A stretch of DNA of 64,000 nucleotides from a bacterium (GCA_021831595.1 JAKBMK010000020.1:2801-66800); one strand, 5' to 3'. Shown: positions 27,756 to 46,808, counted from the first letter of the stretch. Notes: a model not told the origin generated them from the sequence alone. A program made the numbers and translations.

Positions 27756-28355
27756 ATGAATGATGAAAATATACAACAAGAAAATACAGAATTAGATGAA
27801 TCAAAATCAGAGGAATTTCAAGACTTAGAATTCGTAGAATCTACAGAAGATGGGGAAATCTTGCCTACGAAAGATGTCGCGAAGAAGCTTCGTGAAGAGA
27901 TAAAAACTTTAAGAAAAGACAAAGAAGAATATCTAACTGGCTGGCAGAGAGCAAAAGCTGATTATGTAAATTTGCAAAAAGAGCTTGATTTAGCTCGTAT
28001 AAATATCGCTATTCTTACAAAAGAGAAAATGGTAGAGAAATTACTCCCTGCTCTTGATAGTTTTGATATGGCATTTTCCAATAAGGAACATTGGGAAAAG
28101 ATTGACAAGGATTGGCAGGATGGTATCACTTCTATTTATCAGCAAATTCTATCTGGTTTAGAGAAATCAGGCATAGAAAAAATAGATGAGAATGGAGTTC
28201 CTTTTGATCCCAGTATTCACCAATCGATCAGCATAATAGAAACAGATGAAGAGAAAAAAGATCACACAGTAGCGAATGTTTTGCAAGTTGGGTACAAGAT
28301 AGGAGAGAGAGTAATCCGCCCTGCAAAAGTCACAATTTTTGAGCACAAAAAATAA
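27756..28355 (+). CDS. grpE: nucleotide exchange factor GrpE
   Basis: Acidic N-terminus, long coiled coil, GrpE core (LPALDSFDMAF ... GVPFDPSIHQ). Confidence 0.88.
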   Translation: MNDENIQQENTELDESKSEEFQDLEFVESTEDGEILPTKDVAKKLREEIKTLRKDKEEYLTGWQRAKADYVNLQKELDLARINIAILTKEKMVEKLLPALDSFDMAFSNKEHWEKIDKDWQDGITSIYQQILSGLEKSGIEKIDENGVPFDPSIHQSISIIETDEEKKDHTVANVLQVGYKIGERVIRPAKVTIFEHKK

Positions 28356-28418
28356 TTCAATTTTATAAAAAGTTATCCACAGAAAATGCCTTAAATTTCT
28401 AGGTTTAAGGTTTTTTCT

Positions 28419-31301
28419 ATGATAAAATATATTAGTATTTTGTATCAAAAAATGAAATCAAAAATACTACAATTTATCAAATTGCATTGGCCTAAAATTA
28501 CATCGATATTTTTATTTATTTTGCTGTCTTTAGCATACGCAAATATTTTTGCTGTCTTTACTCCAGGCGAGACTCTTGATCCAAATTGTGCTCCTGGGAC
28601 AGTTGGTTGTACTGTGAATGTCTCTAGTACAGAGACGGACCCTGTTTGGTCTGTCGACAAACCTAGTTATTCTACAAAAGCAGTTGCTGATACTTTGTAT
28701 AAACTGGCCGGATACACTCCTGACTTATCTGCCTATTCTACCAAGTCTGTGGCCGATACTTTGTATCTCGGTATTAATTCTGTTGCTACAAATTCTTCTA
28801 GCTTAGAAGGTCACAGTGCAAGTTATTTTCAAACTGCTCTAGGCTACACACCATACAACGCAACTAATCCAAATGGTTACATCACAGGTATCACATCTCT
28901 AAATGTTACAACTGCTCTTGGTTTTACTCCTTACAATTCTACAAATCCAAATGGCTATATCTCTTCCTATACAGAAACCGATCCAACTATTTCCGCTTGG
29001 GCAAAAGCAGGAGTCAAACCTTCATATTCTTATTCTGAAATATCATCTACCCCAACTCTACTTTCTCAATTTACAAATGATCTAGGTAACTATGGCGGAT
29101 TCGTCACGGGTACACCATGGACTTCTATGGGTTACTTAACATCCTATACAGAAACAGATCCAACTATTTCCGCTTGGGCGAAGGCTGCTACGAAGCCGAC
29201 GTATACTGCTGCAGAAGTAGGTGCTCCATCTGGTTCTGGAAATTCTACAGGAACAAATACTGGCGACAACGCCGTAAACTCTTTGTATTCAGGTCTAACA
29301 GCGTCTAAACAAGATACATTAAACGGTACAGGATTTGTGAAGTCTACTGCAGGAACTATTTCATACGATACGAATACATACCTCACGAGTATTAATTCTG
29401 GGAATGTTACTACTGCCCTTGGTTATACCCCTTACAATGCCACCAATCCAGCTGGATATATTTCTTCTTATACAGAAACCGATCCTACTATTTCCGCTTG
29501 GGCGAAAGCTGTAACTAAGCCTACTTATACAGCAAGTGAAGTAGGACTTGGTAATGTTCCAAATCTTTCTTTCTCAGGAAGTAACACTGGTGACGAAACG
29601 ACTTCATCTATCAAAACAAAACTCGGACAAGCCAATACCACAACTGATGGATATATATCTTCTGTTGACTGGAATACTTTCAACAACAAGCAACCAGCAG
29701 GAAGTTATCTTACTTCCTACACCGAAACCGATCCTACTGTTTCCGCTTGGGCAAAAGCAGGAGTCAAACCTTCATATTCTTATTCTGAAATATCATCTAC
29801 CCCAACTCTACTTTCTCAATTCACAAATGATCTAGGTAATTACGGAGGATTTGTCACTGGAACTCCATGGACAAGTATGGGTTATGTTACAGGTACTCCA
29901 TGGACTTCTATGGGTTACTTAACATCCTATACAGAAACAGATCCAACTATTTCCGCTTGGGCAAAGGCTCTCGTAAAACCTACATACACAGCAAGCGAAG
30001 TAGGACTTGGTAATGTTACGAATGAGAGTAAGGCTACAATGTTTACAAATCCTACTCTTACAGGTACAACAAATATTGCTAATGTGAGTATTACCGGAAG
30101 TATTATTCCTACGGTAGACAATTTTTATTATCTTGGTTCTCCAGCTTTCAGATGGCATTCTCTTTACGTCGGACCGGGTTCTATCTATGTTAACGGACAG
30201 AAAGTTCTTCAGACAGATATGTCGAACAGTGTCGTTATGTCTGCTGATGATGCTCAAAATGTTATTGTTAAAACTACAGGTGGAGGAAATATCGAGCTCA
30301 ATCCTGCTTCAGGTGGTGGAGGAATATTACTCAAGAGTAATGTCACTTTGACTGCAGGCAAATCATTTAGAACTTCTGACTTAACTCCTGTTGTATTTTC
30401 AGATGGCACAAAATCGGGGAATATAAATATCATAGGGAATACGATTTCATCAGGAAACACAAATGGAGATATTGAATTTGCTCCGAATGGAGCCGGGAGA
30501 ACATATGTATCTTCTGGTAATTTTGGAATTGGTAATACTGCTCCAGGGGAAAAGTTAAGTGTCACTGGCAACATTCTCGCCACTGGTACCATCTTGGGTT
30601 CAAATATTTCAGGGAACACAAGTGGCACCAACACTGGTGACAATGCAGTGAACTCTCTATACAGTGGACTTGCATCTTCAAAACAAGATGTACTAAGTGG
30701 TACAGGATTTGTGAAGTCTACTGCAGGAACTATTTCATATGACACGAATACATACCTCACAACGGCATCAGCAGGTTCAACTTACATTCCTTATACAGGC
30801 GGTACTTCAAACGTTGATCTTGGAGCTCATAATCTTACAGTTGATACAAATACACTTTTTGTTGACGCCACAAACCATAAAGTAGGTATTGGGATGACAA
30901 ATCCGAATTATGTTTTGGATATTGCTGGTAATGGAATTCAAGTAACAAGAAGTGGTTCAAACCCATCTGTTATTTTGAGCTCTACTGGTTATACAGGAAG
31001 TGCTGGAGACACAGTTGGCTCATTAGCATTTCGTGGAAATGATAATAGTGCCTCAAATGTTTTGTTTGGTTCTATAAATGGATTCGATGTCGTTCCTACT
31101 GCTGGAGCTGTAACTGGTGGAATTAATTTTAAAGTTCCAGTAGCTGGTACTCTTACTGAAATTATGAGAATAAATGGGAATAATGTCGGAATTGGAATTA
31201 CAAACCCATTTTCTCCATTGAGTGTTGTTAGTGGAGAACAAGAAACTGCAACTGCATTTTTCCATCAAAACGCTCCAACTAATAAACCAACATACACATA
31301 A
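28419..31301 (+). CDS. giant fibre-like surface protein, N-terminal segment (probably the same gene as 31424-39049)
   Basis: 960 aa; N-terminal signal anchor; at least 6 copies of YTETDPT[IV]SAWAKA modules; the C-terminus already begins GNNVGIGITNP-type repeats. Confidence 0.75.
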   Translation: MIKYISILYQKMKSKILQFIKLHWPKITSIFLFILLSLAYANIFAVFTPGETLDPNCAPGTVGCTVNVSSTETDPVWSVDKPSYSTKAVADTLYKLAGYTPDLSAYSTKSVADTLYLGINSVATNSSSLEGHSASYFQTALGYTPYNATNPNGYITGITSLNVTTALGFTPYNSTNPNGYISSYTETDPTISAWAKAGVKPSYSYSEISSTPTLLSQFTNDLGNYGGFVTGTPWTSMGYLTSYTETDPTISAWAKAATKPTYTAAEVGAPSGSGNSTGTNTGDNAVNSLYSGLTASKQDTLNGTGFVKSTAGTISYDTNTYLTSINSGNVTTALGYTPYNATNPAGYISSYTETDPTISAWAKAVTKPTYTASEVGLGNVPNLSFSGSNTGDETTSSIKTKLGQANTTTDGYISSVDWNTFNNKQPAGSYLTSYTETDPTVSAWAKAGVKPSYSYSEISSTPTLLSQFTNDLGNYGGFVTGTPWTSMGYVTGTPWTSMGYLTSYTETDPTISAWAKALVKPTYTASEVGLGNVTNESKATMFTNPTLTGTTNIANVSITGSIIPTVDNFYYLGSPAFRWHSLYVGPGSIYVNGQKVLQTDMSNSVVMSADDAQNVIVKTTGGGNIELNPASGGGGILLKSNVTLTAGKSFRTSDLTPVVFSDGTKSGNINIIGNTISSGNTNGDIEFAPNGAGRTYVSSGNFGIGNTAPGEKLSVTGNILATGTILGSNISGNTSGTNTGDNAVNSLYSGLASSKQDVLSGTGFVKSTAGTISYDTNTYLTTASAGSTYIPYTGGTSNVDLGAHNLTVDTNTLFVDATNHKVGIGMTNPNYVLDIAGNGIQVTRSGSNPSVILSSTGYTGSAGDTVGSLAFRGNDNSASNVLFGSINGFDVVPTAGAVTGGINFKVPVAGTLTEIMRINGNNVGIGITNPFSPLSVVSGEQETATAFFHQNAPTNKPTYT

Positions 31302-31423
31302 GACAAACAGGGGCAGGAGGTAATGCAAACGTTAACCAAGGATTATTAGTACAAGTTCAAGGAAATGTAAGTAGTAATATAGCAGATTTTGCTTACTGGG
31401 ATGGAGCAACTTCAACAAGCAGA

Positions 31424-34400
31424 ATGATAATTAGACAAAATGGTAATGTTGGAATCGGGATTTCTGCTCCGGCAAATACGTTGCAGGTAGGAGGACTTGT
31501 TAGTTGGGGTAGTGCATCCTCTCGCTATGGAATTTTGGATTACGCAACAGGGAAGGCAATGCTCTATGGCACATCTGGCAATGCTTTAAGTCTTGGTGCA
31601 AATGGGACAGGAGATTATTTGTATATAACAACCGCAGGACTGGTCGGTATAGGCACTGTCAGTCCAACACAAATAATGCATATATACGGCACTTCTATTC
31701 GTCCACAAATTGAAAGTACCGCTAATGGCGGTTATAGTTCGTTGCGGTTTGTGGGGAAAAATAGTGCAGGGACAGCAAGGGTATTTGAAGTTGGGTTAAA
31801 CATAACAGCAGATGATGTTTGGCAAATAACAGATGGTAGTAGTACTTTTGTAAATGTGAACACCTCTGGCAATGTTGGAATTGGAACTGCGGCACCTTCT
31901 ACAAAATTGGAGGTTGTTGGAACAGCACTTATAGGTAACTTAGCCAATACTATTTCAACCCCAAGTGTTAGATTTTCTGGAGTTGGTATTTATCATCCAG
32001 ATACAAATTACTATGGTGATTATGCTGGATTATTATTGAATGCATCTAGTGCTTGGACAGGTTCTGCAAAAAGATTCCTTATTACAAATGCATTAAATGC
32101 AAACAAATTTGCAATTATAAGAAGTGTAGATTCATCAACTGATCCAGCACTTGGAACTGCTGGTGCTGTTTCTTCTGGTACTGCAGATTTTGTTATTGAT
32201 GCATCTGGTAACATCGGAATCGGGACAACAAGTCCATCACATAAACTTACAGTTACCGGTGGTAACTTAGCAGTAGAAAATGGAAATATGTATTTAGCTT
32301 CAGGTTACCCACTTTATTTTGATTATGGAATTACAAATGATTATTCTATTGCAAAAAGTGGTACAGTTTTGCAATTAAACACAGCTGGCTCGTTTGCAAT
32401 GATGGGTGGTAACGTCGGAATCGGGACGACGAGTCCATCAACAAACTTAGAGATATATGGCTCTAGTCCTATATTAAAAGTAACTCAAAATCCAGGCGTT
32501 GCTGGTGGGGGAACTATTGCTTTGACCGCAGCTGGAGTTGGTTCAGATACAAATGCTGCTACTTTAAATTTATATAATGGTTCTCTTTGGAGTAGAACTG
32601 ATGGATCAGGCATAAGATTTGGTAGTGCAGATAAAACTTCAACATGGGGGATTCTTGGGAGTAATGTTGGTGTCGGAACAACGAATCCTACAGAAAGATT
32701 AGATGTTGTTGGTAATGCGAAAATTTCATCGACGTTACTTCTTGAAGGGCAATATGTTGATTTTTATAATACAAACCCAACATTTAGAGTTGTTACTGGT
32801 CCTGGTACATTCTTAATTGGTGATGATGACAATGTCTCTTTATCTTCCGGTAGATTTTTTGTGAAAAATAACGGCAATATCGGTATCGGCACTACGAGTC
32901 CACAAAATAAATTACAGATTGCAAATGGTGGAATATATTTAACATCGGATAATTTTGATACAGATGGAATTCATCAGCCACTTGCATGGAATCCTAGCTC
33001 CAGTAATTTACAACAATCAATTATTGGTAGTGTAAATTCTGATTATGCAGATACAAGTAGTACAGGAGGAACTCTCGGTATTCGTATAGGTGCAAATGGT
33101 GGATTGTATGAAGGAGTCCCAGGATATATGAATGCAGGTATGCAAGCATTGATTTATGGAAATGGAGGAGATGGGGCTAAGGGTGGAGGATATCTTCAAT
33201 TTTTGACAAAAGATAATACTACTTCATATTCTGCAAATGGAGATGTGCGGATGACCATAAACCCAATTGGTAATGTCGGTATCGGGACGACAACACCGGT
33301 ATCTTTGCTTGGATTAACACACGGTAAGATTACCGTTGGACAGGGGGCTAATGATAAAGCAGAACTACAAGGTGGAACAGGATTTGGTGCTTTGTTGAGA
33401 TTATATGAAGGATCAGGAGGAACAGAAACTGTCAGATTAGATGCCGGTGGTGGTGGAGGAACAAGCTGGATAACAAGTGGTAACGTTGGTATTGGAACGA
33501 CGAGTCCAGATAATAAACTTTCTGTAGTAGCAGGTGGAGCGGCTGGTGGTTTTAGTCAAGGGTTAAGTATCATAACAGGGAATAATTCTTATACAACAGG
33601 ACATGGTGGAATGCTCCAATTTCAAAATGAAGATGTTGTAACTGCTGGGATTAGAGGGGTAAGAGAAGATAGTTGGAAATCGGGATTAAGTTTCTATACT
33701 CACAGTTCAGGTGTTGGTAATACTTTTGATTCAACTTTCTTAGAAAGAATGAGAATAGATGGTAATGGTAATGTTGGAATAGGGACGACGGGGGCACTGA
33801 CTAAGCTGGATGTAAATGGAGTTATTGGTAAAAGACATACAGTTGCTGGTACAGTTGCATCTCCATCCGTTGAAGGCGCTTTACAATTCGTCACTGGTGA
33901 TACTTCAACATTACTTGATGTAGGAATGTTTTTTGTAAATGAATTTTTTAATAATAATGCTGCTTATATGGCATTCAAAACTAGAGATGCGGATACTACA
34001 ATCAGGACAGCAATGACAATATATAAAAATGGTAATGTTGGAATCGGGACAACGAGTCCAAGTCAAAAATTACAAGTTGCTGGGAATATTGCTCTTGATG
34101 CAGAACTAACAGAAAGATTTATACGCATAGCAGGGTCTTATGGTGGAGCTATAAGATTCAGAGGTAATGCTAGTGCTGTTGACGATAGATCACTTCAATT
34201 TGGAACGATGGATGGGAATAATTTGTTTACCCCAAGAATGATCGTAGACACAAACAGTGGTAACGTTGGTATTGGAACAGTAACTCCTGCAAAAACACTT
34301 GAAGTTAATGGTGATATTATGGCTAGTAGTAGTGGTAAGATAGGATTTAGATATTCAGGTGCAGATAATAATTTTTATAGTTATATAGAAGGATATCCAG

Positions 34401-37400
34401 CTGGTGGTGCTCTTACTCTTGCGGGAGGATTGTGGACAAGTTCTGCTACACAAAAAGCTATTACTTTCAAGACTCAAGGAGTAGCAGACGCAATGTCTAT
34501 TTTGAATAATGGAAATGTCGGTATCGGTACGACGAGTCCACAAACGAAACTTTCTGTTTCTAATGGAGGGAGTCAAAATATTGAGATTGATCCAGGTTTT
34601 ATTCAAAGCTTCAATCGTACTACTCCAGGTTATGCTGCTTTACCATTTTATGGAAGTAATTTTAGTTTTAATGTTGGTAATGTCGGAATCGGAACAACGA
34701 ATCCTACATATCCATTAGAAATTAAATCAGCAGTAGGTGCTGGAGCTTTAGCTTTAGTAGGGAGAGATGCTGATAATGTCTCATCTTTTGAATTTTTAAA
34801 TAGTGGAAAAACTTCTAGCGCTTATATCCAAGGTAATGGTTCATGGATAAGATCCAGAGCAGATGGAGGGTTTCATTTCTCAAAAGGATCTACTCCTATA
34901 GTTACAGGAACTGATTTTACAATAGAAGGTTTGAATGTCGGTATTGGAACAACTTCTCCAAATGCAAAACTTGATGTGGCTGGAATCATCAGATCAAATG
35001 CTTCGAATGTAGGTACTTTAAATCTTGGTTCAGATTCATTCAGTAGTACATACACAACTGCTCAAATAATAGGGTCAACCTCTCCTTCATATACAAGTAC
35101 TGGTAAATTATCTTTTAAAGTTTTAACTTGGGGTGTTAATACTGATTATGGTTTAACAGAACAGATGTATATTGATGTTCCTGGTGCTGATTCAAAAGCT
35201 GCAACTATAGTGATGGCACCATATGGTGGCAATGTGGGAATTGGCACGACAAGTCCTCAGTATTCTTTGCATTCTCCGGGGAGTGCATCATTTGGTTTAG
35301 GATCAGAACTACTTTTGAATAATAGTAGTTTTGAATCGGATACTTCTTCTCCTCCAAGTAGTTGGTCCAATCTGGGGAATACCACAGGTACAGCTGTCGT
35401 AGACGGATCTGCTCCTTCGGGGAATAATGTTGCGGAAGTAGTTGCGACTGGTAGTGGAACTATTGGGTATAATGCTTTTAAAACAGCCTCACCATTAGTA
35501 TTAGGCAAGACTTACAAGATTACTTATTATGCTAAAAGTATTAGTGGTGGAACAACGATAAGTCTAGGTATCCAAGCAACAGTTGATTATCAGTATAACC
35601 AAGCCATTTCTACTTCATGGTCTCAGTATTCAGTAACACACACAGGAACAATTAATCCGATGACTATTGGTTTTTCTTCTGCTAGTGGGGCAGCAACTTT
35701 TAGGGTTGATAATATTTCGGTAAAAGAAGTAAATAATCTTTATGTTGGAACAAATGGAAGTGTAGGTATTGGATCTACATCACCAATAAGTGTTCTTGAA
35801 GTTAAAAGTGCTGCTCCAATTTTGACAATTAATGGAACTGACAACTCACAATTCAAAGGAATTAATTTTGCAACGCTTGGAAGCGTGCAAGCTAGTTTGT
35901 TGTCGAATATTGCAACAGGAGAACTGAAACTTCAATCAGGTACTTCTGGTTTCGGTGGATTTATGACATTTAATTTAGATGGTAGTGAGAGAATGAGAAT
36001 TCAAGCAACAACAGGTAATGTAGGTATTGGAACAACGGCACCAGGAGCGAAGTTTGAAACATCTAGTGTTTCAAGTGGTTTAGTTTGGAATGGAATTTTA
36101 AGAAATGACTATAATGCCAATGCAACAAATTATGGAGTCGGATTGAAATTAAAAGTTAGTAGCGATGGAGTGCCAAATGAAATTAATAAATGGGTAGGTC
36201 TTGCTGCTGTAGCTGGCAGTACATATTCTAATAGGACAGATTTGGCCTTGTATACATCTGCATCATCAGCAACAGACCCAACTGAGAAAATGCGAATTGA
36301 TGGAAACGGTAATGTTGGAATTGGAACACAAACTCCTGGAGCAAAATTAGATGTAATTGGAAATATTTATCTAAGTTCAGCTAATCCTTATGGTGGTTCG
36401 AGTGTTTATAATGTCCAAAAAGAGCAAAATGTTAGCAGCGCAAGTGTGGCTGGAGCGGGATGGTATCGTGTTGCTCAGCTTGGGGATGTACGTGGACAAA
36501 ACACAGTTACTATTTACACCACAGGAGGAAGTTATGCCCCACAAAGTACAACGATAAGATGGTGGCATGATTGGTCAGCTCAAGGTGGATTAAATGTCAT
36601 TTCAGAATTTGGTTCTAGCTTTTGGAGTCAAGCACGAGTGACAAGTGATGGCATAACTAATTCATATTTGGAAGTTTACTTTAATCAAGCTATGGCAGGT
36701 GGTGTCTATCTTTCAATGCAATATGATGGAGGTTTTGCAAAAGGATCACTTTATAGTGGGTCTTTGCCTGTTGGTGGTGATACAGTAAGAATGACTACAA
36801 CAACTGGATTACTGTCTGTTGGGGACAAATTGACTATAAATAATTCTGGCAACGTTGGAATTGGAATAACAAGCCCAAGCCAAAAATTAGATGTAAACGG
36901 TATTCTTAAAATAGAAGGACAGGCTAGTTCGACCTTTAATTCAACCTCGCAAGGAATTTCTTTCTTTGCTGGTAATGATAACTATAAGATTGGTTTTGAT
37001 AGTCAAGCTGGATCAAGGGGTTATATTCGTTACAACGTAGATACGAATGATAGTGTTCACGGACATATTTTTTCAGCTGGTGCATCAGGAAGTCAAACAG
37101 ACTTAATGACAATTCTAGGTAACGGCAACGTCGGGATTGGTACGGCGAATCCAGGGACAAAACTTGATATCCAAGGAGCGATAAATACTTCCCCTGTATC
37201 AATAGCACAATCTGGCGCAGCAAACAATACATTCGGTGATTATATAGGTCTTGATTTCAAGATGTCAAACGAGATGTCGCAGTATACGGGCAATCCTGCA
37301 GCGAGAATCTCAGCGTATCTGGAAGGAGGAAGCAATGGTTACGGATTGGATTTTTGGACGAAGCTCGATGCAGCAAACTTTAGCAAGGCAATGAGGATAA

Positions 37401-39049
37401 ACAGGTATGGCAACGTAGGTATTGGGACAACAAGCCCGGGAGAAAAGTTGCATATATATCAAGCTTCAGGAGAGCCTCATTTAGCATTAGAATCTGGCGA
37501 TTCAAACGCAGGAATATATATTAAAGCAGCAGCTGCAGCGTTTCCTTATATTAGATTTTATCAGGGTGGAGTAGGAAAATTTGAAATGGGAAAAGTTGCT
37601 TCGAATGGAAATTTTTACTTCAACAATACAACAGCATCTGGAGAAACAAATGCAACGATGGTAATTTCATCTGGTGGCAACGTCGGAATTGGAACAACGA
37701 GTCCGGATTATAAACTAACCGTAAATAGTTCAGGGAATACAAGTTCAGCTGCAAGTGCGTTGCATGGTCAATATTATGGACCGATGATTTCTACTGGACA
37801 AACAAGTTCGAGTTATTATGCTTTGAATATTACCAATAATGCATCAAGTCCAGGAACAGGAAATTCAATTTTTTATGTAAGAGCTGATGGTAATATTGGT
37901 ATCGGAACGACAAATCCTAGAGCAAGTTTAGAAATTGCTGGTGGTATTAGGGTGGCTGATGGTGTATACGGCGTTTCAAATAGTGCTGGTAATCAAATAT
38001 TAGCATCGTCGAGTGGCAGTAATTATCTATATAGCAGAACTTCTGGCAACCTTATAATCAGAAATGGTGCGGATTCAGCTGAGTTGTTAAGAATTACAGA
38101 TTCCGGTAACGTTGGGATTGGTACAACCAGCCCAAATCAGAAATTGGAAGTCAGTGGCACGATTAGACAAAGTGGTTGTACTACAGCGGGAACGATATCG
38201 GTCAATGCATCAGGAGATATTATATGTACTCCTTCATCAATCAGTTTCAAGAATACTAGAGAAGATTTAGAAGTAGGCTTGCAGACTTTGATACAACTAA
38301 AGCCAGTATCGTACAAATTCAATGACAATATGGATATGGGCGAGAAGACTCACTTCGGATTCATTTCAGAAGAAGTCGACTATGTTCTCCCTGAGCTTGC
38401 AACTCATGATAAAGACGGCAAGCCTTATGGCCTTGATACCAATGCGATTCTTGCGGTGACAGTAAACGCTGTGAAGGAGCTCAATACCAAAGTCGAAGAA
38501 ATGAATTTGAAGATTTCTGACTTGTCATCACTCGACACTACGAAGGCCACTTCACTCGGAAGTTTGATAAAGACTTTCCTAGCAGATGAATACAACAGAG
38601 TCGAAAAGATATTTGCCAAGACTGTCGTCACCGAAGGCCTCGAGATGAAAGATAGCGCAACAGGCGAGACATATTGCGTAATGGTCACAAATGGGGAAAT
38701 AAACAAAGTGAAAGGGAAGTGTGGCGAGCCTATTGTCGCTCCAGCTTCACAAGCAGCTTCGCCTGTAGTTTCTACTCTTCCTACTCCTAGTTGTACTGAC
38801 GGCATAATGAATCAAGACGAGACGGGGATAGATACGGGTGGTATATGCGATGTCCCAGTACTTGCGGATATGACTGCATACGATAATGCTCTTGCTGCAA
38901 AAGTTGAAGCGGACTATACGACAGATAGTTGGGCTCTCTACAAAGCAGTTCTCGATGCCAACATCGTCACAAATACTAATACTCAAGTCGAAGTCGACAC
39001 CGCCGTTGCCAACATCACCTCCGCCCAGGGAAGTCTAATTCCAAATTAA
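31424..39049 (+). CDS. giant fibre-like surface protein: about 25 GNVGIGTTSP repeats, CBM4_9-like insert, Peptidase_S74-like intramolecular chaperone domain, FIVAR-like C-terminus
   Basis: 2541 aa; this frame is open from 31286, overlapping the upstream ORF by 15 nt. Repeat starts G-N-V-G-I-G-T-T-S-P-x-x-K-L-[DE]-V. CBM at roughly nt 35300-35730 (NSSFE...GKTYKITYYAKS...FRVDNISV). S74-like at roughly 38230-38530 (LQTLIQLKPVSYKFND...FGFISEEVDYVLPELA...GLDTNAILAVTVNAVKELN). FIVAR-like at roughly 38870-39040. Confidence 0.8.
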   Translation: MIIRQNGNVGIGISAPANTLQVGGLVSWGSASSRYGILDYATGKAMLYGTSGNALSLGANGTGDYLYITTAGLVGIGTVSPTQIMHIYGTSIRPQIESTANGGYSSLRFVGKNSAGTARVFEVGLNITADDVWQITDGSSTFVNVNTSGNVGIGTAAPSTKLEVVGTALIGNLANTISTPSVRFSGVGIYHPDTNYYGDYAGLLLNASSAWTGSAKRFLITNALNANKFAIIRSVDSSTDPALGTAGAVSSGTADFVIDASGNIGIGTTSPSHKLTVTGGNLAVENGNMYLASGYPLYFDYGITNDYSIAKSGTVLQLNTAGSFAMMGGNVGIGTTSPSTNLEIYGSSPILKVTQNPGVAGGGTIALTAAGVGSDTNAATLNLYNGSLWSRTDGSGIRFGSADKTSTWGILGSNVGVGTTNPTERLDVVGNAKISSTLLLEGQYVDFYNTNPTFRVVTGPGTFLIGDDDNVSLSSGRFFVKNNGNIGIGTTSPQNKLQIANGGIYLTSDNFDTDGIHQPLAWNPSSSNLQQSIIGSVNSDYADTSSTGGTLGIRIGANGGLYEGVPGYMNAGMQALIYGNGGDGAKGGGYLQFLTKDNTTSYSANGDVRMTINPIGNVGIGTTTPVSLLGLTHGKITVGQGANDKAELQGGTGFGALLRLYEGSGGTETVRLDAGGGGGTSWITSGNVGIGTTSPDNKLSVVAGGAAGGFSQGLSIITGNNSYTTGHGGMLQFQNEDVVTAGIRGVREDSWKSGLSFYTHSSGVGNTFDSTFLERMRIDGNGNVGIGTTGALTKLDVNGVIGKRHTVAGTVASPSVEGALQFVTGDTSTLLDVGMFFVNEFFNNNAAYMAFKTRDADTTIRTAMTIYKNGNVGIGTTSPSQKLQVAGNIALDAELTERFIRIAGSYGGAIRFRGNASAVDDRSLQFGTMDGNNLFTPRMIVDTNSGNVGIGTVTPAKTLEVNGDIMASSSGKIGFRYSGADNNFYSYIEGYPAGGALTLAGGLWTSSATQKAITFKTQGVADAMSILNNGNVGIGTTSPQTKLSVSNGGSQNIEIDPGFIQSFNRTTPGYAALPFYGSNFSFNVGNVGIGTTNPTYPLEIKSAVGAGALALVGRDADNVSSFEFLNSGKTSSAYIQGNGSWIRSRADGGFHFSKGSTPIVTGTDFTIEGLNVGIGTTSPNAKLDVAGIIRSNASNVGTLNLGSDSFSSTYTTAQIIGSTSPSYTSTGKLSFKVLTWGVNTDYGLTEQMYIDVPGADSKAATIVMAPYGGNVGIGTTSPQYSLHSPGSASFGLGSELLLNNSSFESDTSSPPSSWSNLGNTTGTAVVDGSAPSGNNVAEVVATGSGTIGYNAFKTASPLVLGKTYKITYYAKSISGGTTISLGIQATVDYQYNQAISTSWSQYSVTHTGTINPMTIGFSSASGAATFRVDNISVKEVNNLYVGTNGSVGIGSTSPISVLEVKSAAPILTINGTDNSQFKGINFATLGSVQASLLSNIATGELKLQSGTSGFGGFMTFNLDGSERMRIQATTGNVGIGTTAPGAKFETSSVSSGLVWNGILRNDYNANATNYGVGLKLKVSSDGVPNEINKWVGLAAVAGSTYSNRTDLALYTSASSATDPTEKMRIDGNGNVGIGTQTPGAKLDVIGNIYLSSANPYGGSSVYNVQKEQNVSSASVAGAGWYRVAQLGDVRGQNTVTIYTTGGSYAPQSTTIRWWHDWSAQGGLNVISEFGSSFWSQARVTSDGITNSYLEVYFNQAMAGGVYLSMQYDGGFAKGSLYSGSLPVGGDTVRMTTTTGLLSVGDKLTINNSGNVGIGITSPSQKLDVNGILKIEGQASSTFNSTSQGISFFAGNDNYKIGFDSQAGSRGYIRYNVDTNDSVHGHIFSAGASGSQTDLMTILGNGNVGIGTANPGTKLDIQGAINTSPVSIAQSGAANNTFGDYIGLDFKMSNEMSQYTGNPAARISAYLEGGSNGYGLDFWTKLDAANFSKAMRINRYGNVGIGTTSPGEKLHIYQASGEPHLALESGDSNAGIYIKAAAAAFPYIRFYQGGVGKFEMGKVASNGNFYFNNTTASGETNATMVISSGGNVGIGTTSPDYKLTVNSSGNTSSAASALHGQYYGPMISTGQTSSSYYALNITNNASSPGTGNSIFYVRADGNIGIGTTNPRASLEIAGGIRVADGVYGVSNSAGNQILASSSGSNYLYSRTSGNLIIRNGADSAELLRITDSGNVGIGTTSPNQKLEVSGTIRQSGCTTAGTISVNASGDIICTPSSISFKNTREDLEVGLQTLIQLKPVSYKFNDNMDMGEKTHFGFISEEVDYVLPELATHDKDGKPYGLDTNAILAVTVNAVKELNTKVEEMNLKISDLSSLDTTKATSLGSLIKTFLADEYNRVEKIFAKTVVTEGLEMKDSATGETYCVMVTNGEINKVKGKCGEPIVAPASQAASPVVSTLPTPSCTDGIMNQDETGIDTGGICDVPVLADMTAYDNALAAKVEADYTTDSWALYKAVLDANIVTNTNTQVEVDTAVANITSAQGSLIPN

Positions 39050-39068
39050 ATTAATTAAAAATTAAGTC

Positions 39069-39100
39069 AGGACAAACTCTGCACCTGCAGAGTTTGTCCT
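39069..39100. repeat. palindromic hairpin AGGACAAACTCTGCA-cc-TGCAGAGTTTGTCCT, copy 1
   Basis: perfect 15-bp arms; 33 of 34 nt identical to copy 2; lies between the giant gene stop and the PaaX-like gene. Confidence 0.8.
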
Positions 39101-39128
39101 AGATAAAATTTGGGTATATAATATTTGT

Positions 39129-39608
39129 ATGTCTATTGTAAGAGAAATATTAGATGAACTTTGGAATACAGAATACAATTACAAGGGAGTAAGGGTAAAT
39201 ATTTTTGGTATTCCGCGATTTAAAAAATATTCTGATAGTAGTTTACAACGAACGATAAATCGTTTAAAAGAGAAAGGAATAATAGAAAAAGAATTATCTG
39301 GAATTGTGCTTTCTAAATATGGTAAAAAATATTATCAGAAAAAGTTTGATTCTCTAAAACAATTTGAAAGACCCAAGAATCAACCCAAAGAGCGGAAACT
39401 CTTGGTAATGTTTGATGTTCCAACAGAAAAGAAGGGCGAGAGGGAATGGCTCCGCTGGCATTTAAAGAAATTCGATTATATTATGATTCAGCAAAGTGTC
39501 TGGGTTGGCCCATCACCACTACCTAAGGAATTTACTGAGTATTTAAAGAGTATAAAGCTGGATAGATGTATTAAGACTTTCAAACTAGAAAAACCATATT
39601 TTATTTAA
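39129..39608 (+). CDS. PaaX-like transcriptional regulator (wHTH plus PaaX_C-like domain)
   Basis: 159 aa; C-terminal KLLVMFDVPTEKKGEREWLRWHLKKFDYIMIQQSVWVGP matches the PaaX_C pattern (W..D.PE...R..LR..L...GF..L..SVW..P). Confidence 0.55.
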   Translation: MSIVREILDELWNTEYNYKGVRVNIFGIPRFKKYSDSSLQRTINRLKEKGIIEKELSGIVLSKYGKKYYQKKFDSLKQFERPKNQPKERKLLVMFDVPTEKKGEREWLRWHLKKFDYIMIQQSVWVGPSPLPKEFTEYLKSIKLDRCIKTFKLEKPYFI

Positions 39609-39630
39609 TATATTGTATTATATATAAAAT

Positions 39631-39664
39631 CAGGACAAATTCTGCACCTGCAGAGTTTGTCCTG
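39631..39664. repeat. palindromic hairpin CAGGACAAATTCTGCA-cc-TGCAGAGTTTGTCCTG, copy 2
   Basis: 16-bp arms with one T:G wobble; lies between the convergent PaaX-like genes. Confidence 0.8.
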
Positions 39665-39685
39665 ATTAATATTTATATATTAATG

Positions 39686-40207
39686 TTATTTGCACAGTTC
39701 GAAAAATTCTTTTTCGGTGGATTCGTCGATTTTATCAGTGACGATGATGATGAGTTCGGTAGAAAGATTTAAATCTTTTTTGATATTTGTAAAGAGATGC
39801 TCAAAAGGATATACAGATATCCAAACAGAATTTTTGAGGCAAGTGAATCCTGCTTTTTTGAGTAAGTAGCGAAGAGCTTCACGCTCACTCTTTCTTTCTT
39901 CTGGCATATCGAGAAGTATTATTCTCCAAAATCCATCCCAAGTATTACTTACTATGGCATTATCGCACTCAAGCTTGAGACTGTTGGCCTTCTTCTTGCC
40001 TTCTTTTGTAAGTTTGGCGTATTTATTCTGGCCAGAGTCCACACTTTCTATGAGTCCTGCGTCTTTTAGACCCTTTATAGAGCGATTTAGAGCATACTGG
40101 CTATCCTTATCTAGGGCAATCTTGTCTTCTAGTTCAGAGACGGAAACAGCCGGTCTTTCGGACAGGATTTTGATAATTTTCTTTGAAAAATCACGCTTTT
40201 TTAACAT
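39686..40207 (-). CDS. PaaX-like transcriptional regulator (paralog), divergent from dnaK
   Basis: 173 aa; N-terminal wHTH; C-terminal WDGFWRIILLDMPEERKSEREALRYLLKKAGFTCLKNSVWISVYP. Confidence 0.6.
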   Translation of the reverse strand: MLKKRDFSKKIIKILSERPAVSVSELEDKIALDKDSQYALNRSIKGLKDAGLIESVDSGQNKYAKLTKEGKKKANSLKLECDNAIVSNTWDGFWRIILLDMPEERKSEREALRYLLKKAGFTCLKNSVWISVYPFEHLFTNIKKDLNLSTELIIIVTDKIDESTEKEFFELCK

Positions 40208-40208
40208 G

Positions 40209-40308
40209 TTGACATTATATCATAGGTGATTATAATATTCAACAAGTATTTTGCGGTCGCTAAATACTTGTCAAAAAATAAGTGTGAGTGTATACTGGGA
40301 GTGTGAGT
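40209..40308 (+). promoter_or_regulatory. dnaK control region: two tandem sigma70-like promoters plus inverted and direct repeats
   Basis: P1 is TTGACA(40209-14)-16-TATAAT(40231-36). P2 is TTGTCA(40268-73)-17-TATACT(40291-96). IR ACAAGTATTT-N10-AAATACTTGT (40242-40271) overlaps the P2 -35. Direct repeats AGTGTGAGT at 40281-89 and 40300-08 flank the P2 -10. Confidence 0.45.
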
Positions 40309-40352
40309 AAATTTTATTATCAAAAATTATTAGTTAATTATTTAAAATAAAT

Positions 40353-42248
40353 ATGAGTAAAATAATAGGTATAGATTTGGGTACAACAAACAGTGCAGTT
40401 GCCATCATAGAAGGTGGACAACCAAAAATTATTGAGAATATCGAAGGAGCACGTACAACTCCATCAGTAGTTGCCATCACAAAGAATGGTGATAGAATGG
40501 TGGGTCTTCTTGCCAAGCGTCAGGCAGTGACAAATCCGGAGAATACCGTATATGGTATCAAGAGATTCATTGGCCACATGTATGATGATCCTGAAATACA
40601 AAAAGACGAGAAAACAATTCCTTACAAAATTCAAAAAGGAAGTACAGGAGGAGTAGAAACTAAAATCGGAGATGGTTGGCTTCGTCCAGAAGAAATTTCT
40701 GCGATGATATTAAGTAAAATTAAAGCTGATGTCGAAGCAAAACTCGGTGAGAAAATTACTGAAGCGGTTATTACTGTGCCAGCTTACTTCAACGATGCAC
40801 AAAGAAAAGCTACGAAAGATGCTGGAATTATCGCTGGACTTGATGTGAAGAGAATTATCAATGAGCCTACAGCCGCAGCTCTCGCTTATGGATTTAATAC
40901 AAAGAAGAATGAGAAAATAGTTGTTTATGACTTTGGGGGTGGAACGTTTGATGTTTCAGTTCTTGAGGTTGGAGATGATGTTATCGAAGTAAAGTCTACA
41001 GACGGAGACTCACACATGGGAGGTGAAGATATAGATCAAAAGATTGTGAAGTGGATTGCTGATGAATACAAGAAAGAGTCTGGTATTGATGTCACGAAAG
41101 ATATGCTTGCACTACAACGCTTAAAAGAAGCTGCTGAGAAGACAAAGCACGAACTTTCAACTACTACTGATTCAGAAATAAATATTCCATTCATCACTTC
41201 TGATGCTTCAGGGCCAAAGCACTTACTCCTAAAGATGTCTCGTGCTGTTCTCGAATCTCTAGCTGAAGAATATGTTACTCGTTCTATAGAGATCACAAAG
41301 CGTGCTATTGAAGCTTCACCATTTAAGATGGGAGAAATAAATGAAATAATTCTCGTTGGTGGACAGACAAGAATGCCAATGATTGTAGAAGCAGTAAAGA
41401 AATTATTTGGCAAGGAACCAAATCGTTCTATCAATCCAGATGAAGTTGTCGCTCTCGGTGCTGCTGTTCAGGCTGGAGTATTGCAAGGAGATGTACGTGA
41501 TGTTCTTCTTCTAGACGTTATTCCTCTATCTCTTGGTATTGAAACATTGGGAGGAGTTTCTACAAAACTTATAGATAGAAATACAACAATTCCTTCTTCA
41601 AAGTCCCAAATATTCTCAACTGCTGCAGATAATCAGACAAGTGTAGAAATCCACATAACTCAAGGTGAACGTCCAATGGCAAGTGACAACAAGAGTTTGG
41701 GCCGATTTATTCTAGATGGTATTCCACCTGCACCAAGAGGTATTCCTCAAGTAGAAGTTACTTTTGATGTGGATGCAAACGGAATTCTAAATGTGAAGGC
41801 TATGGATAAGGCTTCAGGTAAGGTTCAATCTATACGTATTGAAGCTTCATCAGGCCTCACAGATGCTGAAATAAAGAGAATGCAAGATGATGCAGCAGCT
41901 CATGCCGCTGAAGATGCCAAGAAAAAGGAACTTGCAGATGTGAAGAATACTGCCGAAATGATGATCTTCACAGCAGAGAAATCTGTGAAAGATTATGGAG
42001 ATAAAGTAGACGCTGCTATTAAGACAGAGGTAGAAGCCAAAATAGCCCTACTTCGAACAGCAAAAGATGGATCTGGTATGGAGGCTATTAAAAAAGCGAC
42101 AGAAGATCTTTCAGCTGAAATGTCTAAAATAGGTGAAGCTATGAGTAAAGCAGGTACAGGACCAACCGAAGGTACCAATCCTACACCTGAGGCTCAAGAA
42201 CCAGAAATAAAAGACGCAGAAGTAAATGAGAACCCAGAAACTAAGTAA
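40353..42248 (+). CDS. dnaK: molecular chaperone DnaK (Hsp70)
   Basis: [18 protein letters not shown], full-length Hsp70. Confidence 0.97.
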
Positions 42249-42261
42249 AGTTTAAAGCTAC

Positions 42262-42367
42262 AACGGCGCAATATATTAAAATTTTACTCGCTTATCCCTC
42301 TCCGCAAGTATTAACTTGCTCCGGCGCGCCCACACCTACTCGTAAAATTTTAATATATTGCGCCGTT
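42262..42367. repeat. perfect 26-bp inverted repeat with 54-bp GC-rich spacer between dnaK and dnaJ
   Basis: AACGGCGCAATATATTAAAATTTTAC (42262-87) and its exact reverse complement (42342-67); the spacer holds nested palindromes GCAAGTattaACTTGC and GGCGCGCC. Confidence 0.8.
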
Positions 42368-42385
42368 TATGCTACTATAAAAATT

Positions 42386-44961: not shown

Positions 44962-45269
44962 ATATTATGATTTGGCTTTTATTGGGCGGATTTATATTAA
45001 CTATAGGAGATATTTTCTTTAAATTCTGGACTAAACACCCACATAATTGGATGTATCTTGTTGGTATCAGTATTTACATTATAGGATTAATGTTTTTAAT
45101 ACAGAGTTTTAAAAATACAAACATTGCGGTGGCTTCTGCTATCTTTGTGATTGCAAATATTGTTACTCTTGCTGTCGTTAGTTGGCTGTTTTTTCATGAA
45201 CCACTTTCATATCTGCAAATATTTGGAATCGTTTTGGCGATAATAGCTATCTTTATATTAGAAATATAA
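44955..45269 (+). CDS. small multidrug-resistance/EamA-like 4-TM transporter
   Basis: 104 aa, four TM helices, SMR-like size and topology. Confidence 0.5.
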   Translation: MVNIMIWLLLGGFILTIGDIFFKFWTKHPHNWMYLVGISIYIIGLMFLIQSFKNTNIAVASAIFVIANIVTLAVVSWLFFHEPLSYLQIFGIVLAIIAIFILEI

Positions 45270-45338
45270 TAAAAGGCTCGACTTGTTAATTTATATTATT
45301 TAAATTATAATACAAACATGTTAAAGAAGGGTAGTTAT

Positions 45339-45377
45339 ATGAATATAGCATGGTGGACAGCTCACATTTGTGGGTAG
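45339..45377 (+). CDS. candidate trp leader peptide MNIAWWTAHICG
   Basis: 12 codons with tandem TGG TGG at 45351-45356; 42 nt upstream of a terminator; precedes trpB. Confidence 0.45.
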   Translation: MNIAWWTAHICG

Positions 45378-45419
45378 TCTTCATTGTATTTATAATTATC
45401 TCTGAGTAATAAAAGACAA

Positions 45420-46760: not shown

Positions 46761-46765
46761 ATATA

Positions 46766-46796: not shown

Positions 46797-46808
46797 TATA
46801 GTGATTAT

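Follow-up and report, generated by a model that had tools for sequence, protein, structure and literature searches.

The closest described systems are the S74 mosaic adhesive trimer (MAT) fibres of Bdellovibrio bacteriovorus, for example Bd3182, which are trimeric, located on the cell surface, bind prey and cleave themselves (Caulton et al. 2024, PMC10769870). With these experimentally characterised proteins, cellular fibres of exactly such a type are already known (PMC10769870), and kindred fibres have already been widely annotated in Patescibacteria as “tail fiber domain-containing protein” or “Phage tail fiber-like protein”; our search of the literature found no paper that characterises these Patescibacteria proteins. 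A further counterpart is MyRF, a eukaryotic ER-membrane transcription factor with an internal S74/ICA domain, which is cleaved at P586|S587 with the dyad S587/K592 (PMC8326128), and whose N-terminal part is thereby detached from a membrane anchor at the C-terminus.

Here we describe a locus of Candidatus Nomurabacteria (Patescibacteria/CPR), a host with a tiny genome, found in a stretch of 64,000 nucleotides (the window). In our judgement it is likely a chromosomal Nomurabacteria gene, ancestrally of about 3,541 codons, for a giant secreted surface fibre that resembles phage tail fibres and is of the S74-type MAT kind.

Reading frames, genomic setting and relatives

The original prediction gave two consecutive ORFs, whose coordinates, lengths and strand turned out to be exact:

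28419..31301, + strand: ORF1, 960 aa, N-terminal third of the ancestral fibre gene, with a TAA end made by the frameshift
31283..31301, + strand: frameshift window
31286..31423, + strand: 46 further open codons upstream of ORF2 in its frame, which complete the junction module
31424..39049, + strand: ORF2, 2541 aa, C-terminal two thirds of the fibre
39068..39101, strand not given: terminator-like hairpin with a 15-bp stem, directly past the ORF2 stop

The start of ORF1 is placed at 28419 or 28452 by gene callers. A near-identical copy of the hairpin is located at 39628-39667. The two ORFs had been taken for one protein of roughly 3,500 aa, which does not hold for the window as it stands: there is no single ORF of such size, and ORF1 is read in frame 0 while ORF2 is read in frame 2. 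Frame 2 opens at 31286 after TAA TAA and frame 0 ends with the stop at 31299-31301, so the one-base frame change must fall in 31283-31301. The frameshift is real, its sequence being identical in all five assemblies (ENA, NCBI, Logan).

Judged from the sequence, ORF1 and ORF2 are one ancestral gene split by this frameshift, because the break interrupts a module that becomes whole again once the frames are joined (the end of ORF1 plus the 46-codon extension gives a normal module of 86 aa), because the ATG of ORF2 is a conserved Met inside the repeat motif (E)RMRI (repeat family D4 covers 31418-31461), and because relatives carry both halves in one ORF. For instance, an ORF1-like N-terminus and an S74 domain share a single ORF in L012 (2005 aa), L015 (1683 aa) and L059 (987 aa), and in an allele of the same locus (P0244/L085) the ORF1-like and ORF2-like parts are joined in one ORF of 2601 aa. 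Neither a Shine-Dalgarno sequence upstream of ORF2 nor a signal peptide at its N-terminus was found. ORF1 has the signal peptide and no chaperone, ORF2 has the chaperone and no export signal, and therefore the fibre as encoded in the strain of the window is probably not made or non-functional.

The gene is flanked by rpsM-rpsK-rpsD-rpoA-rplQ-rplM-rpsI, grpE, dnaK and dnaJ, and the remaining genes examined in the window are all housekeeping genes, which agrees with the earlier statement that no phage genes lie nearby: none was found across the 64 kb. In a second Nomurabacteria genome the fibre gene is situated upstream of dnaK in a syntenic position. The closest relatives are cellular Patescibacteria proteins, and the named relatives come from Paceibacterota, Nomurabacteria, Gracilibacteria, Kaiserbacteria, Campbellbacteria and Moraniibacteriota. 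In total, there are 13,244 related clusters (50% identity) at E<=1e-10, with a longest member of 7,920 aa.

Modules of the encoded fibre

From the N-terminus to the C-terminus, the two ORFs encode the following parts:

28419..28559, + strand: Lys-rich n-region and hydrophobic segment (aa 27-47), Sec signal peptide or signal anchor
28519-28532 and 28547-28560 (region 28519..28560), + strand: 14-bp direct repeat TTTTGCTGTCTTTA, present twice
28563..28610, + strand: conserved motif PGETLDPNCAPGTVGC with a Cys pair, type A N-terminus of Patescibacteria fibres
28626..29978, + strand: TETDP stalk region, five exact modules and one divergent module, with GYTPYNxTNPxGY repeats
29643-29693, + strand: DGYISSVDWNTFNNKQ module, common to Bdellovibrio, Bacteroidota and Patescibacteria fibres
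30516..38164, + strand: array of 28 modules, each headed by the “capping loop” motif (G)N(V)GIGT(T)SPxxKLxV
35312..35722, + strand: CBM_4_9 (Pfam PF02018; ORF2 aa ~1297-1433) within one stalk module
36374..36823, + strand: conserved all-beta domain of ~150 aa (ORF2 aa 1651-1800) inserted in a stalk module
38231..38236, + strand: predicted autoproteolysis site Pro2270|Ser2271 (ORF2 numbering), TP|SSISFK
38234..38554, + strand: S74 intramolecular chaperone / auto-processing domain (Pfam PF13884; ORF2 aa 2271-2377)
38615..38728, + strand: post-chaperone module 1, beta-hairpin/sheet with two Cys (EMKDSATGETYCVMVTNGEINKVKGKC), AF2 strands 186-210, confident
38792..38848, + strand: post-chaperone module 2, Cys motif CTDGIMNQDETGIDTGGIC after a Pro/Ser-rich linker, predicted disordered (AF2)
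38870..39031, + strand: post-chaperone module 3, predicted three-helix bundle (AF2 helices 263-277, 280-292 and 301-316), FIVAR-like but sub-threshold

The N-terminus of ORF1 had been read as a signal anchor. The hydrophobic segment is there (residues 27-47, Kyte-Doolittle means up to 2.27, preceded by a Lys-rich stretch), but the anchor role is doubtful: relatives have signal-peptidase-like sites (VFA|V, AQA|V) directly before the conserved PGxTLxPxC motif, and a cleavable signal peptide is therefore more likely. The predicted signal-peptidase site in ORF1 would be IFA|VF, and the motif takes the form PGETLDPNC...C. Other giant relatives possess an xNYQGKL-type N-terminus.

Exact TETDP copies are located at ORF1 aa 185, 244, 352, 435 and 505, so that five of the at least six YTETDPT[IV]SAWAKA modules first described are present as such, while the sixth exists only in a degenerate form (STETDPVWSVDKP, aa 71). 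This region gives weak PHROG tail-fibre matches and contains partial DNA duplications with 78-89% identity. The larger GNVGIGT array had been put at about 25 modules of 80-100 aa. The modules are real, and the count is 28 (a relaxed pattern finds 27, and NHKVGIG at ORF1 aa 821 adds one; 3 in ORF1 and 25 in ORF2), with a spacing of 55-132 aa and three long exceptions of 176, 180 and 221 aa. The DNA copies of the modules are only 60-75% identical, indicating old repeats maintained at the protein level. The array matches the PHROG tail-fibre families 9942 and 18345, and PHROG tail-fibre matches reach 6e-83 and 5e-78, which, together with the housekeeping context, bears out the view of a cellular gene composed of modules also present in phage tail fibres. 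Besides, the repeat motif can be aligned with the crystallised Bdellovibrio fibres Bd2133, Bd1334, Bd2439 and Bd3182 (8OND, 8OML, 8OL4/8ONF, 8OJN; phmmer/hmmsearch; profile 3e-26), and the array presumably forms a trimeric beta-helical stalk.

Of the two domains inserted in the stalk, the carbohydrate-binding module was correctly recognised in the original prediction: scanned by itself, the segment ORF2 aa 1281-1450 scores 31.9 bits for CBM_4_9 (E 2e-7, cut-off 25.9) and covers positions 3-117 of the 136 in the profile, the whole-protein scan having missed it. In the PDB it matches the xylanase CBM4 3JXS (1.3e-4) and 4BJ0 (3e-3). Among the 361 retrieved relatives, none carries this insertion.

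The S74 domain was also confirmed. The Pfam match at ORF2 aa 2273-2325 reaches 33 bits in the isolated segment and 29.7 bits in the whole ORF2 (cut-off 22), profile searches of the region match MyRF 7DC3 (2.4e-17), 6F45, 8JOV and 3GUD, and PHROG profiles are matched up to their C-terminal ends, which fall at about ORF2 aa 2377. For the last 321 aa the AF2 model, a monomer of a presumed trimer like all our models, has a pLDDT of 79.5, with values above 90 over residues 50-140 and a helix at 119-149. Foldseek matches it to the MyRF ICA domain 7DC3 with prob 1.0 and TM 0.60-0.65, and to 3GW6, the endosialidase chaperone, with prob 0.94. The chaperone topology, a beta “donut” round the cleavage strand followed by a long C-terminal helix that serves the trimeric coiled coil, thus appears in the predicted structure.

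The Ser-x4-Lys dyad (Ser2271 and Lys2276) is intact. In an alignment of 70 relatives, its two columns (S51 and K56) show a conservation of at least 90%, and a self-made cut at Pro2270|Ser2271 is predicted. A point against cleavage is the residue at +1, which is Ser where the canonical motif has Asp (SSISFK vs SDxRLK), although this Ser variant recurs in relatives. From Ser2271 to the C-terminus there are 271 residues, versus a median of 124 among relatives. The domain is indeed internal, as first noted, whereas phage fibres end with it, but this is less odd than it seemed: MyRF is built likewise, and 34 of the 154 retrieved relatives have at least 150 residues past the chaperone domain, including 12 of the 13 that reach 3,000 aa or more.

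In the extension of ~165 residues past the S74 domain, a Cys hairpin is followed by a Cys motif and then by a predicted three-helix bundle, and six Cys are found at ORF2 aa 2252-2475. Module 1 is conserved in P0006, P0007, P0018, P0032 and 19 others; module 2 forms a 25-aa tandem repeat in P0279, and its short Cys motif is the sole match in a scan of IMG/VR. The tail had been described as Cys-containing and ending in a FIVAR-like helix pair. Tail and Cys stand, whereas AF2 predicts three helices and not a pair (pLDDT about 72), and FIVAR (PF07554) stays below the cut-off: it gave no match in the 186-aa tail, and the last 67 aa alone reached E 0.79 and 10.8 bits (cut-off 29.2), in register with profile positions 21-68 of 71. 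At E<=1, 20 of 37 homologous modules hit FIVAR (best 1.3e-3), and the next family was hit by 4. Foldseek relates module 3 weakly (E ~1) to helical bundles of StrH and EndoE, and a profile match was found to R. bromii Amy4 (1.4e-3). Homologues of module 3 occur in 10-20 tandem copies in proteins bearing SLH or ChW.

Proposed function and alternative readings

When intact, the chain would be exported by Sec via its N-terminal signal sequence, and three chains would be aligned with one another by the S74 intramolecular chaperone domain near the C-terminus, which would nucleate the folding of a trimeric beta-helical stalk with 28 capping-loop modules. Extrapolated from Bd3182 (922 aa, about 55 nm), such a stalk might be ~0.2 micrometres long and display the CBM4_9 glycan-binding module and the second beta domain laterally. 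Ser2271/Lys2276 would then cut at Pro2270|Ser2271 and free a fragment of 271 residues, composed of the chaperone domain and the 165-residue extension. The target of the mature fibre may be a surface that bears glycans, with a host or partner cell as the most plausible candidate, and by analogy a role in host attachment is suggested. Since the gene is frameshifted, this mechanism may not operate in the present strain.

The allele L085 bears on the state of the gene. It is devoid of the 28 bp between the two TTTTGCTGTCTTTA repeats, which are found nowhere else in the window, and its signal peptide is consequently out of frame with the fibre; this deletion is seen in one assembly, ~100 nt from the contig end. 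The two alleles of the locus carry independent frameshifts. The dN/dS between them is 0.06-0.12 (0.11 in the post-chaperone tail); the fibre gene is under purifying selection, and the locus is mosaic.

We lean slightly towards regarding the locus in this strain as a recently inactivated pseudogene, the fibre being dispensable or counter-selected in its habitat. This overlaps with the explanation given above, as it concerns the present state and not the identity of the locus. It is favoured by the overlap of the two frames, which spans only 13 nt and has no slippery site at the frame change, by the lack of both a signal peptide and a Shine-Dalgarno sequence at ORF2, by the independently broken sister allele and by the fixation of the frameshift in five assemblies. 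Against it, no stop has yet accumulated in the 2,541 codons of ORF2 and the dN/dS is about 0.1, so any inactivation must be very recent, and the L085 deletion comes from that one assembly, near a contig end. Two independent frame-breaking indels in two alleles of the same fibre gene, one of them between 14-bp direct repeats unique in the window, could also be read, at a locus that is mosaic as contingency loci often are, as a phase-variation switch, or the junction could be decoded by programmed ribosomal frameshifting, the full-length fibre then being conditional. We hold this to be quite improbable: the interval 31283-31301 contains neither a homopolymer nor a short tandem repeat, the 13-nt overlap offers no X XXY YYZ heptamer, all five assemblies are in one state, and a 28-bp deletion is not readily reversible.

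Strong PHROG tail-fibre matches, the S74 domain and distant tblastn matches to phage tail fibres (Thermus, Synechococcus and Pelagibacter phages) would fit the tail fibre of a phage or tailocin in a prophage remnant rather than a cellular surface protein. Such an origin is very hard to reconcile with 64 kb containing 0 phage genes, with ribosomal-protein genes, grpE, dnaK and dnaJ around the fibre gene, with its syntenic position in another Nomurabacteria genome and with its N-terminal Sec signal; moreover, the phage relatives are 25-31% identical and none spans the post-chaperone tail (tblastn), the IMG/VR match is limited to the short Cys motif, and the closest relatives are cellular. It is also unlikely that the protein is primarily an enzyme, a cell-displayed tailspike-like polysaccharide depolymerase and not an adhesin, for Pfam, NCBIfam and PHROGs give no catalytic family and the insert is far below the size of a depolymerase beta-helix.

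Returning to the surface fibre, a wider idea may be put forward, which we ourselves consider rather doubtful. The grpE-dnaK-linked fibre might be a variable partner-recognition determinant of Nomurabacteria-type CPR, similar to a phage RBP and of cell length, with stalk and tip cassettes shuffled between co-occurring strains and silenced by frame-breaking indels under conflict with hosts or phages, whose conserved post-chaperone extension tethers the three C-termini at the wall during assembly until the S74 cut frees the finished tip. If so, the S74 step would be a MyRF-like “cut to release” in reverse topology, and the Cys hairpin and FIVAR-like bundle would serve as a wall tether, the bundle being a module whose other occurrences are tandem arrays in wall-anchored SLH/ChW proteins.

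Comparison with known systems

The protein belongs to the same family as the Patescibacteria “tail fiber domain-containing proteins” and differs from those retrieved by its CBM4_9 insertion. With phage fibres (endoNF/K1F 3GW6, T5 pb1 4UW8, GA-1 neck appendage 3GUD) it shares the S74 domain by Pfam, profile and predicted fold, and GNVGIGT-type modules that fall in PHROG tail-fibre families; the endoNF dyad S911/K916 has its Lys five residues past the Ser, the same spacing as Ser2271/Lys2276. Unlike them, it is cellular, has an N-terminal Sec signal and continues past ORF2 aa ~2377, and the identity is only 25-31%. MyRF (7DC3; PMC8326128, PMC3742443) is the best structural match and likewise has further domains after an internal S74/ICA domain, and the predicted cut at a Pro|Ser bond with a Lys five residues downstream would be the same. 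In contrast to MyRF, the export signal here is at the N-terminus, and no membrane segment is predicted in the fragment on the C-terminal side.

Compared with the MAT fibres, the protein is ~3.5x longer (3,541 vs about 1,000 aa) and has the PGxTLxPxC...C motif in place of the conserved beta-rich MAT N-terminal domain of ~130 aa; BLASTP of ORF1 against the Bd16 S74 fibre of Bdellovibrio bacteriovorus (L047:8831-13096) gave no alignment in the N-terminal 200 aa. It continues for ~165 residues past S74, whereas the 13 S74 MATs are described as ending in S74; it has SS and not SD at the cleavage motif, a CBM4_9 in mid-stalk and a frameshift in this strain, and its host, unlike Bdellovibrio, belongs to the CPR and has neither an outer membrane nor a known predatory cycle. 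The capping loop has one residue more between VG and P than the published MAT consensus (V-G-G/N-pi-x-x-P-x-x-x-L). Like the MATs, it is a cellular, chromosomal, signal-peptide-bearing protein that resembles a phage tail fibre, with the MRIxxxGNVGIGTTxPxxKLxV capping-loop motif and direct matches to MAT crystal structures, an SxGYLSSxDWNTFNNKQ stalk module (45% identity over 60 aa), an S74 chaperone/protease with Ser-x4-Lys, and mosaic evolution by swaps of tips and modules.

The fibre gene and its frameshift

The feature is a cellular, phage-tail-fibre-like giant fibre gene of a CPR bacterium, whose product is predicted to be matured by its Peptidase_S74 (S74) domain. The elements of the locus are listed here by position in the window.

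28419-31301, + strand: ORF1, 960 aa, frame 0
28519-28532 and 28547-28560: two 14-bp direct repeats TTTTGCTGTCTTTA, unique in the window
31424-39049, + strand: ORF2, 2541 aa, frame 2
35264-35773: segment scanned alone for CBM_4_9
39068-39101 (directly after the fibre stop) and 39628-39667: long GC-rich hairpins, near-identical, CAGGACAAA(C/T)TCTGCACCTGCAGAGTTTGTCCT
39129-39608, + strand, and 39686-40207, - strand: paralogous small PaaX_M-domain proteins, between the fibre gene and dnaK

The two consecutive ORFs lie exactly where the original prediction had placed them, but the single protein of about 3,500 aa that it described is not encoded as such in the window, being split by a frameshift at 31283-31301. 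The frame of ORF2 is open upstream to 31286, just past a TAA TAA, and the stop codon of ORF1 is at 31299-31301; because the frames overlap there, a single frame change in 31283-31301 joins them into 3,541 codons. Across the junction, the joined frames give a normal 86-aa module which aligns with 19 other modules. The ATG of ORF2 turned out to lie inside a repeat, as the conserved Met codon of (E)RMRI..GNVGIG (31418-31461 belongs to repeat family D4), with no Shine-Dalgarno sequence upstream and no signal peptide downstream. Several relatives carry both halves in one ORF. For example, the Paceibacterota locus L012:9992-16009 (2005 aa) has homologues of the signal sequence and of the Cys motif, and the same ORF includes the DWNTFNNKQ module, the YIPYTGGTSNVDLG...VGIGT segment, the S74 domain and, before it, GNVGIGT repeats; the one-ORF relatives L015 (1683 aa) and L059 (987 aa) resemble it. 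P0244 (2601 aa), the protein of the sister allele L085 at the same locus, with the same two PaaX_M genes downstream, also runs as one ORF, from ORF1-like modules through a differing middle region to a C-terminus that resembles ORF2 (66% identity over the last 321 aa).

We considered whether the split could come from the assembly or from recoding. An assembly error was rejected, since the frameshifted gene is 100% identical over its whole length in five independent assemblies (ENA ERZ27237183 and ERZ27236928, NCBI GCA_021786835.1, Logan SRR22746137 and SRR22746138). No in-frame variant of this allele was found in the 90%-identity clusters. Programmed frameshifting is unlikely, because the 13-nt overlap (31286-31298) contains neither a slippery heptamer nor a homopolymer. 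In this strain a frameshift divides what is one gene into ORF1 and ORF2. A practical warning for such giants is that their real architecture is concealed when the ORFs are split.

Stalk, chaperone domain and C-terminal tail

ORF1 begins with a stretch rich in Lys, then a hydrophobic segment of 21 residues whose Kyte-Doolittle means reach 2.27, followed by the Cys-pair motif PGETLDPNCAPGTVGC. At least six YTETDPT[IV]SAWAKA modules had been predicted; five copies are exact and the sixth is divergent, and a DGYISSVDWNTFNNKQ module comes after them. GN(V/F)GIG-type motifs, put at about 25 originally, number 3 close to the end of ORF1 and 25 in ORF2, so that the joined protein has 28 (27 with a relaxed pattern, plus NHKVGIG at ORF1 aa 821), typically spaced by 55-132 aa. 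At the DNA level the repeat copies share only 60-75% identity, which argues for old repeats preserved as protein sequence and against recent duplication or an artefact of assembly.

Two long modules of the stalk hold insertions. One, of 176 aa, is occupied by the CBM4_9-like module that had been proposed: it scores 31.9 bits against CBM_4_9 (Pfam cut-off 25.9) only when ORF2 aa 1281-1450 are scanned alone, and the xylanase CBM4 structure 3JXS matches the segment at 1.3e-4. Neither the whole-protein Pfam scan nor the precomputed Pfam annotations of the fibre protein detected it, a gap that may be systematic for such domains in long, repeat-rich proteins. This module is absent from all 361 retrieved relatives. 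The other long module (180 aa) contains a conserved domain, about 150 aa long, of which 7 relatives have one or two copies; this domain has no Pfam match and in the fold search gave only moderate, high-rmsd matches to tailspike-like proteins. Matches to phage tail-fibre profiles in PHROGs are very strong (phrog_9942 at 6e-83 over 14 stretches; phrog_18345 at 5e-78). NCBIfam gave nothing useful for ORF1 or ORF2, and a sub-threshold match to EutS is spurious.

The predicted Peptidase_S74 domain was recovered at ORF2 aa 2273-2325, scoring 29.7 bits when all of ORF2 is scanned and 33 bits for the C-terminal segment alone, against a cut-off of 22 bits. Many PHROGs tail-fibre profiles align their extreme C-terminal end to this region and end near ORF2 aa 2377. 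The AF2 model of the last 321 aa of ORF2 (mean pLDDT 79.5, above 90 across the chaperone core) has the expected chaperone topology, and its best structural matches are the ICA domain of MyRF, the myelin regulatory factor (prob 1.0, TM 0.60-0.65), and the endosialidase chaperone 3GW6 (prob 0.94). A profile built from 70 C-terminal relatives matches the Bdellovibrio fibre Bd2133 at 3e-26 and the MyRF ICA domain 7DC3 at 2.4e-17, as well as 6F45, 8JOV and the GA-1 neck appendage 3GUD. The catalytic positions are retained (columns S51 and K56, at least 90% conserved in the 70 relatives), and the predicted site TP|SSISFK parallels P586|S587...K592 of MyRF. At the +1 position the fibre has Ser in place of the canonical Asp, a variant which recurs in relatives.

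The segment that runs from Ser2271 to the C-terminus is 271 residues long, against a median of 124 in relatives. The S74 domain is internal, as the original prediction said, but this is not singular: at least 150 aa follow the chaperone in 34 of 154 retrieved relatives, including 12 of the 13 with 3,000 aa or more, in a sample biased toward tail-bearing proteins by a query that included the tail. In this clade, then, an internal position of S74 is a recurring architecture.

The tail after the chaperone, about 165 residues long, has three parts: a Cys-containing beta-hairpin/sheet, confidently predicted by AF2 and conserved across 23 retrieved proteins (in some, the chain stops directly after it); a Pro/Ser-rich linker with the CTDGIMNQDETGIDTGGIC motif, the sole part of the fibre with IMG/VR matches; and a predicted (AF2) three-helix bundle. 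It is under purifying selection (dN/dS 0.11 between the two alleles); no phage match, PHROG profiles included, reaches into it, and phmmer against PDB sequences gave no match. In P0279 (1814 aa), another protein, the 19-aa Cys motif CxDGxxNQDETGxDxGGxC recurs in tandem, as a 25-aa unit, at least 15 times.

The C-terminus had been read as a FIVAR-like helix pair. Pfam FIVAR has no match in the 186-aa tail and reaches only 10.8 bits (E 0.79; cut-off 29.2 bits) on the last 67 aa, and three helices are predicted instead of two. Of 37 homologous modules, 20 match FIVAR at E<=1 (best 1.3e-3), far more than for any other family, so that "FIVAR-like" is a fair description, membership being at most putative and supported only indirectly, through the homologous modules. 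Homologues of the bundle occur as 10-20 tandem copies in proteins with SLH or ChW cell-wall-binding domains. Such SLH/ChW proteins of 1,100-1,800 aa (P0246-P0254 and P0259-P0269) carry a tandem helical module of about 62 aa, homologous to the last 60 aa of the fibre, with the consensus DLxxYxxxLAAVxExDYTxxSWxxYQxVVxANxVTxxxxQxEIxxATxxIxxAQxxL. The module may merit its own family model, as Pfam FIVAR detects it only weakly.

Genomic context and the sister allele

The fibre gene lies downstream of rpsM-rpsK-rpsD-rpoA-rplQ-rplM-rpsI, with grpE upstream, and is followed by the two small PaaX_M-type genes, dnaK and dnaJ. The remainder of the window encodes PriA, MreB, an M50 protease, BipA, sigma-70, MnmA, AlaRS, a P-type ATPase, FtsA, polyamine enzymes, CysRS and a histidine kinase. 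A prophage or tailocin was rejected: the 64-kb window contains no phage genes, in agreement with the original prediction, and the IMG/VR scan gave three matches only, all confined to the 19-aa Cys motif (viral contigs L086-L088, close matches). DnaK shares a 90%-identity cluster with Candidatus Nomurabacteria, and in Nomurabacteria fen_1328 (L009; DnaK 86% identical) a fibre gene with the canonical SDQRLK site takes the equivalent position, preceding a PaaX-like gene (L009:4419-4967) and dnaK.

The fibre gene interrupts a grpE - dnaK - dnaJ chaperone cluster (27756-43471), all these genes being on the + strand, and a fibre is upstream of dnaK also in L009:1-7218. Co-transcription of the fibre with heat-shock genes is conceivable. 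The PaaX_M proteins have weak Cas2-like similarity (TIGR01573 for the first, 26.1 bits, cut-off 24.5) and might regulate either the dnaK operon or the fibre. The two hairpins flank the 159-aa PaaX_M-like gene; they may be either terminators or copies of a small palindromic element. Elsewhere, a polyamine-type cluster (43585-53097) holds Orn/Arg decarboxylase, saccharopine-dehydrogenase-like, Orn_DAP_Arg_deC family and arginase/agmatinase family genes, with aspartate kinase and aspartate-semialdehyde dehydrogenase inside it, and the ORFs at 59852-62071, 10126-11421 and 3217-4335 (739, 431 and 372 aa) have no Pfam match at E<=1e-5.

Compared with L085, the DNA identity is 90.6% in the 5' block (28547-28960), undetectable in the middle of the gene, 99.0% at 36296-37439 and 89.7% from 37675 onward (37675-40300); the chaperone block shares only 72% identity (44% at third codon positions). 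Between blocks dS varies from 0.03 to 0.46 while dN/dS stays at 0.06-0.12, pointing to a recombining, cassette-shuffled yet functional gene. It is a recombination mosaic. In L085 (ENA ERZ27237050 k141_10312; L085:1-215), 28 bp are deleted between the two 14-bp direct repeats, which frameshifts the signal peptide off an otherwise intact 2601-aa fibre ORF, independently of the window's frameshift; only a single assembly shows this deletion, and there it lies about 100 nt from the contig end. Each of the two alleles observed here thus carries a break, at a site of its own. With its mosaic alleles and two independent frameshifts, this syntenic locus offers a natural experiment.

Significance and comparison with known fibres

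In general, the original prediction described a real feature correctly, while the frameshift and the sub-threshold FIVAR match amend it, and the architecture has parallels and precedents in the mosaic adhesive trimer (MAT) fibres of Bdellovibrio, MyRF and thousands of annotated relatives. What varies here is the alternative N-terminal module, the conserved post-chaperone tail, the mid-stalk CBM4_9, the size, and the mosaic, repeatedly frameshifted syntenic locus. To our knowledge, how ultra-small CPR/Patescibacteria recognise and hold partner cells is known mainly from a few Saccharibacteria models. Nomurabacteria-type genomes, though very small, devote more than 10 kb to one fibre, which is homologous to Bdellovibrio prey-recognition fibres and phage receptor-binding proteins and is a candidate partner-recognition determinant; its CBM4_9 domain, 150-aa beta insert and post-chaperone tail are testable candidates.

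The family is very large in CPR/Patescibacteria. The C-terminal query matched 68,649 50%-identity clusters at E<=1e-3 (13,244 at E<=1e-10), with members up to 7,920 aa. Named matches, from many Patescibacteria lineages, are "tail fiber domain-containing protein" or "Phage tail fiber-like protein"; this named set is apparently limited to about 0.65-1.75 times the query length, and the giant relatives came from the cluster-representative search. Our literature search found no dedicated paper on S74 fibres in CPR/Patescibacteria.

MAT fibres are surface-located trimers with a signal peptide and are relatives of phage tail fibres; in 13 of 21 the chain terminates in S74, which has an SDxxxK motif, Bd3182 cleaves itself at S782, a capping-loop motif V-G-G/N-pi-x-x-P-x-x-x-L recurs, and the tips have been swapped in evolution (Caulton et al. 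2024, PMC10769870). The repeat motif of our fibre aligns directly (phmmer) to the solved MAT structures 8OND (Bd2133), 8OML (Bd1334), 8OL4/8ONF (Bd2439) and 8OJN (Bd3182). The MAT N-terminal domain was not found in ORF1, which has no similarity to the N-terminus of one Bdellovibrio fibre; among relatives there are two N-terminal types, PGxTLxPxC..C, as in the window's gene, and xNYQGKL, which resembles the MAT N-terminus. For the internal S74 domain the characterised precedent is MyRF, with a matching Pro|Ser...Lys layout of the cleavage site.
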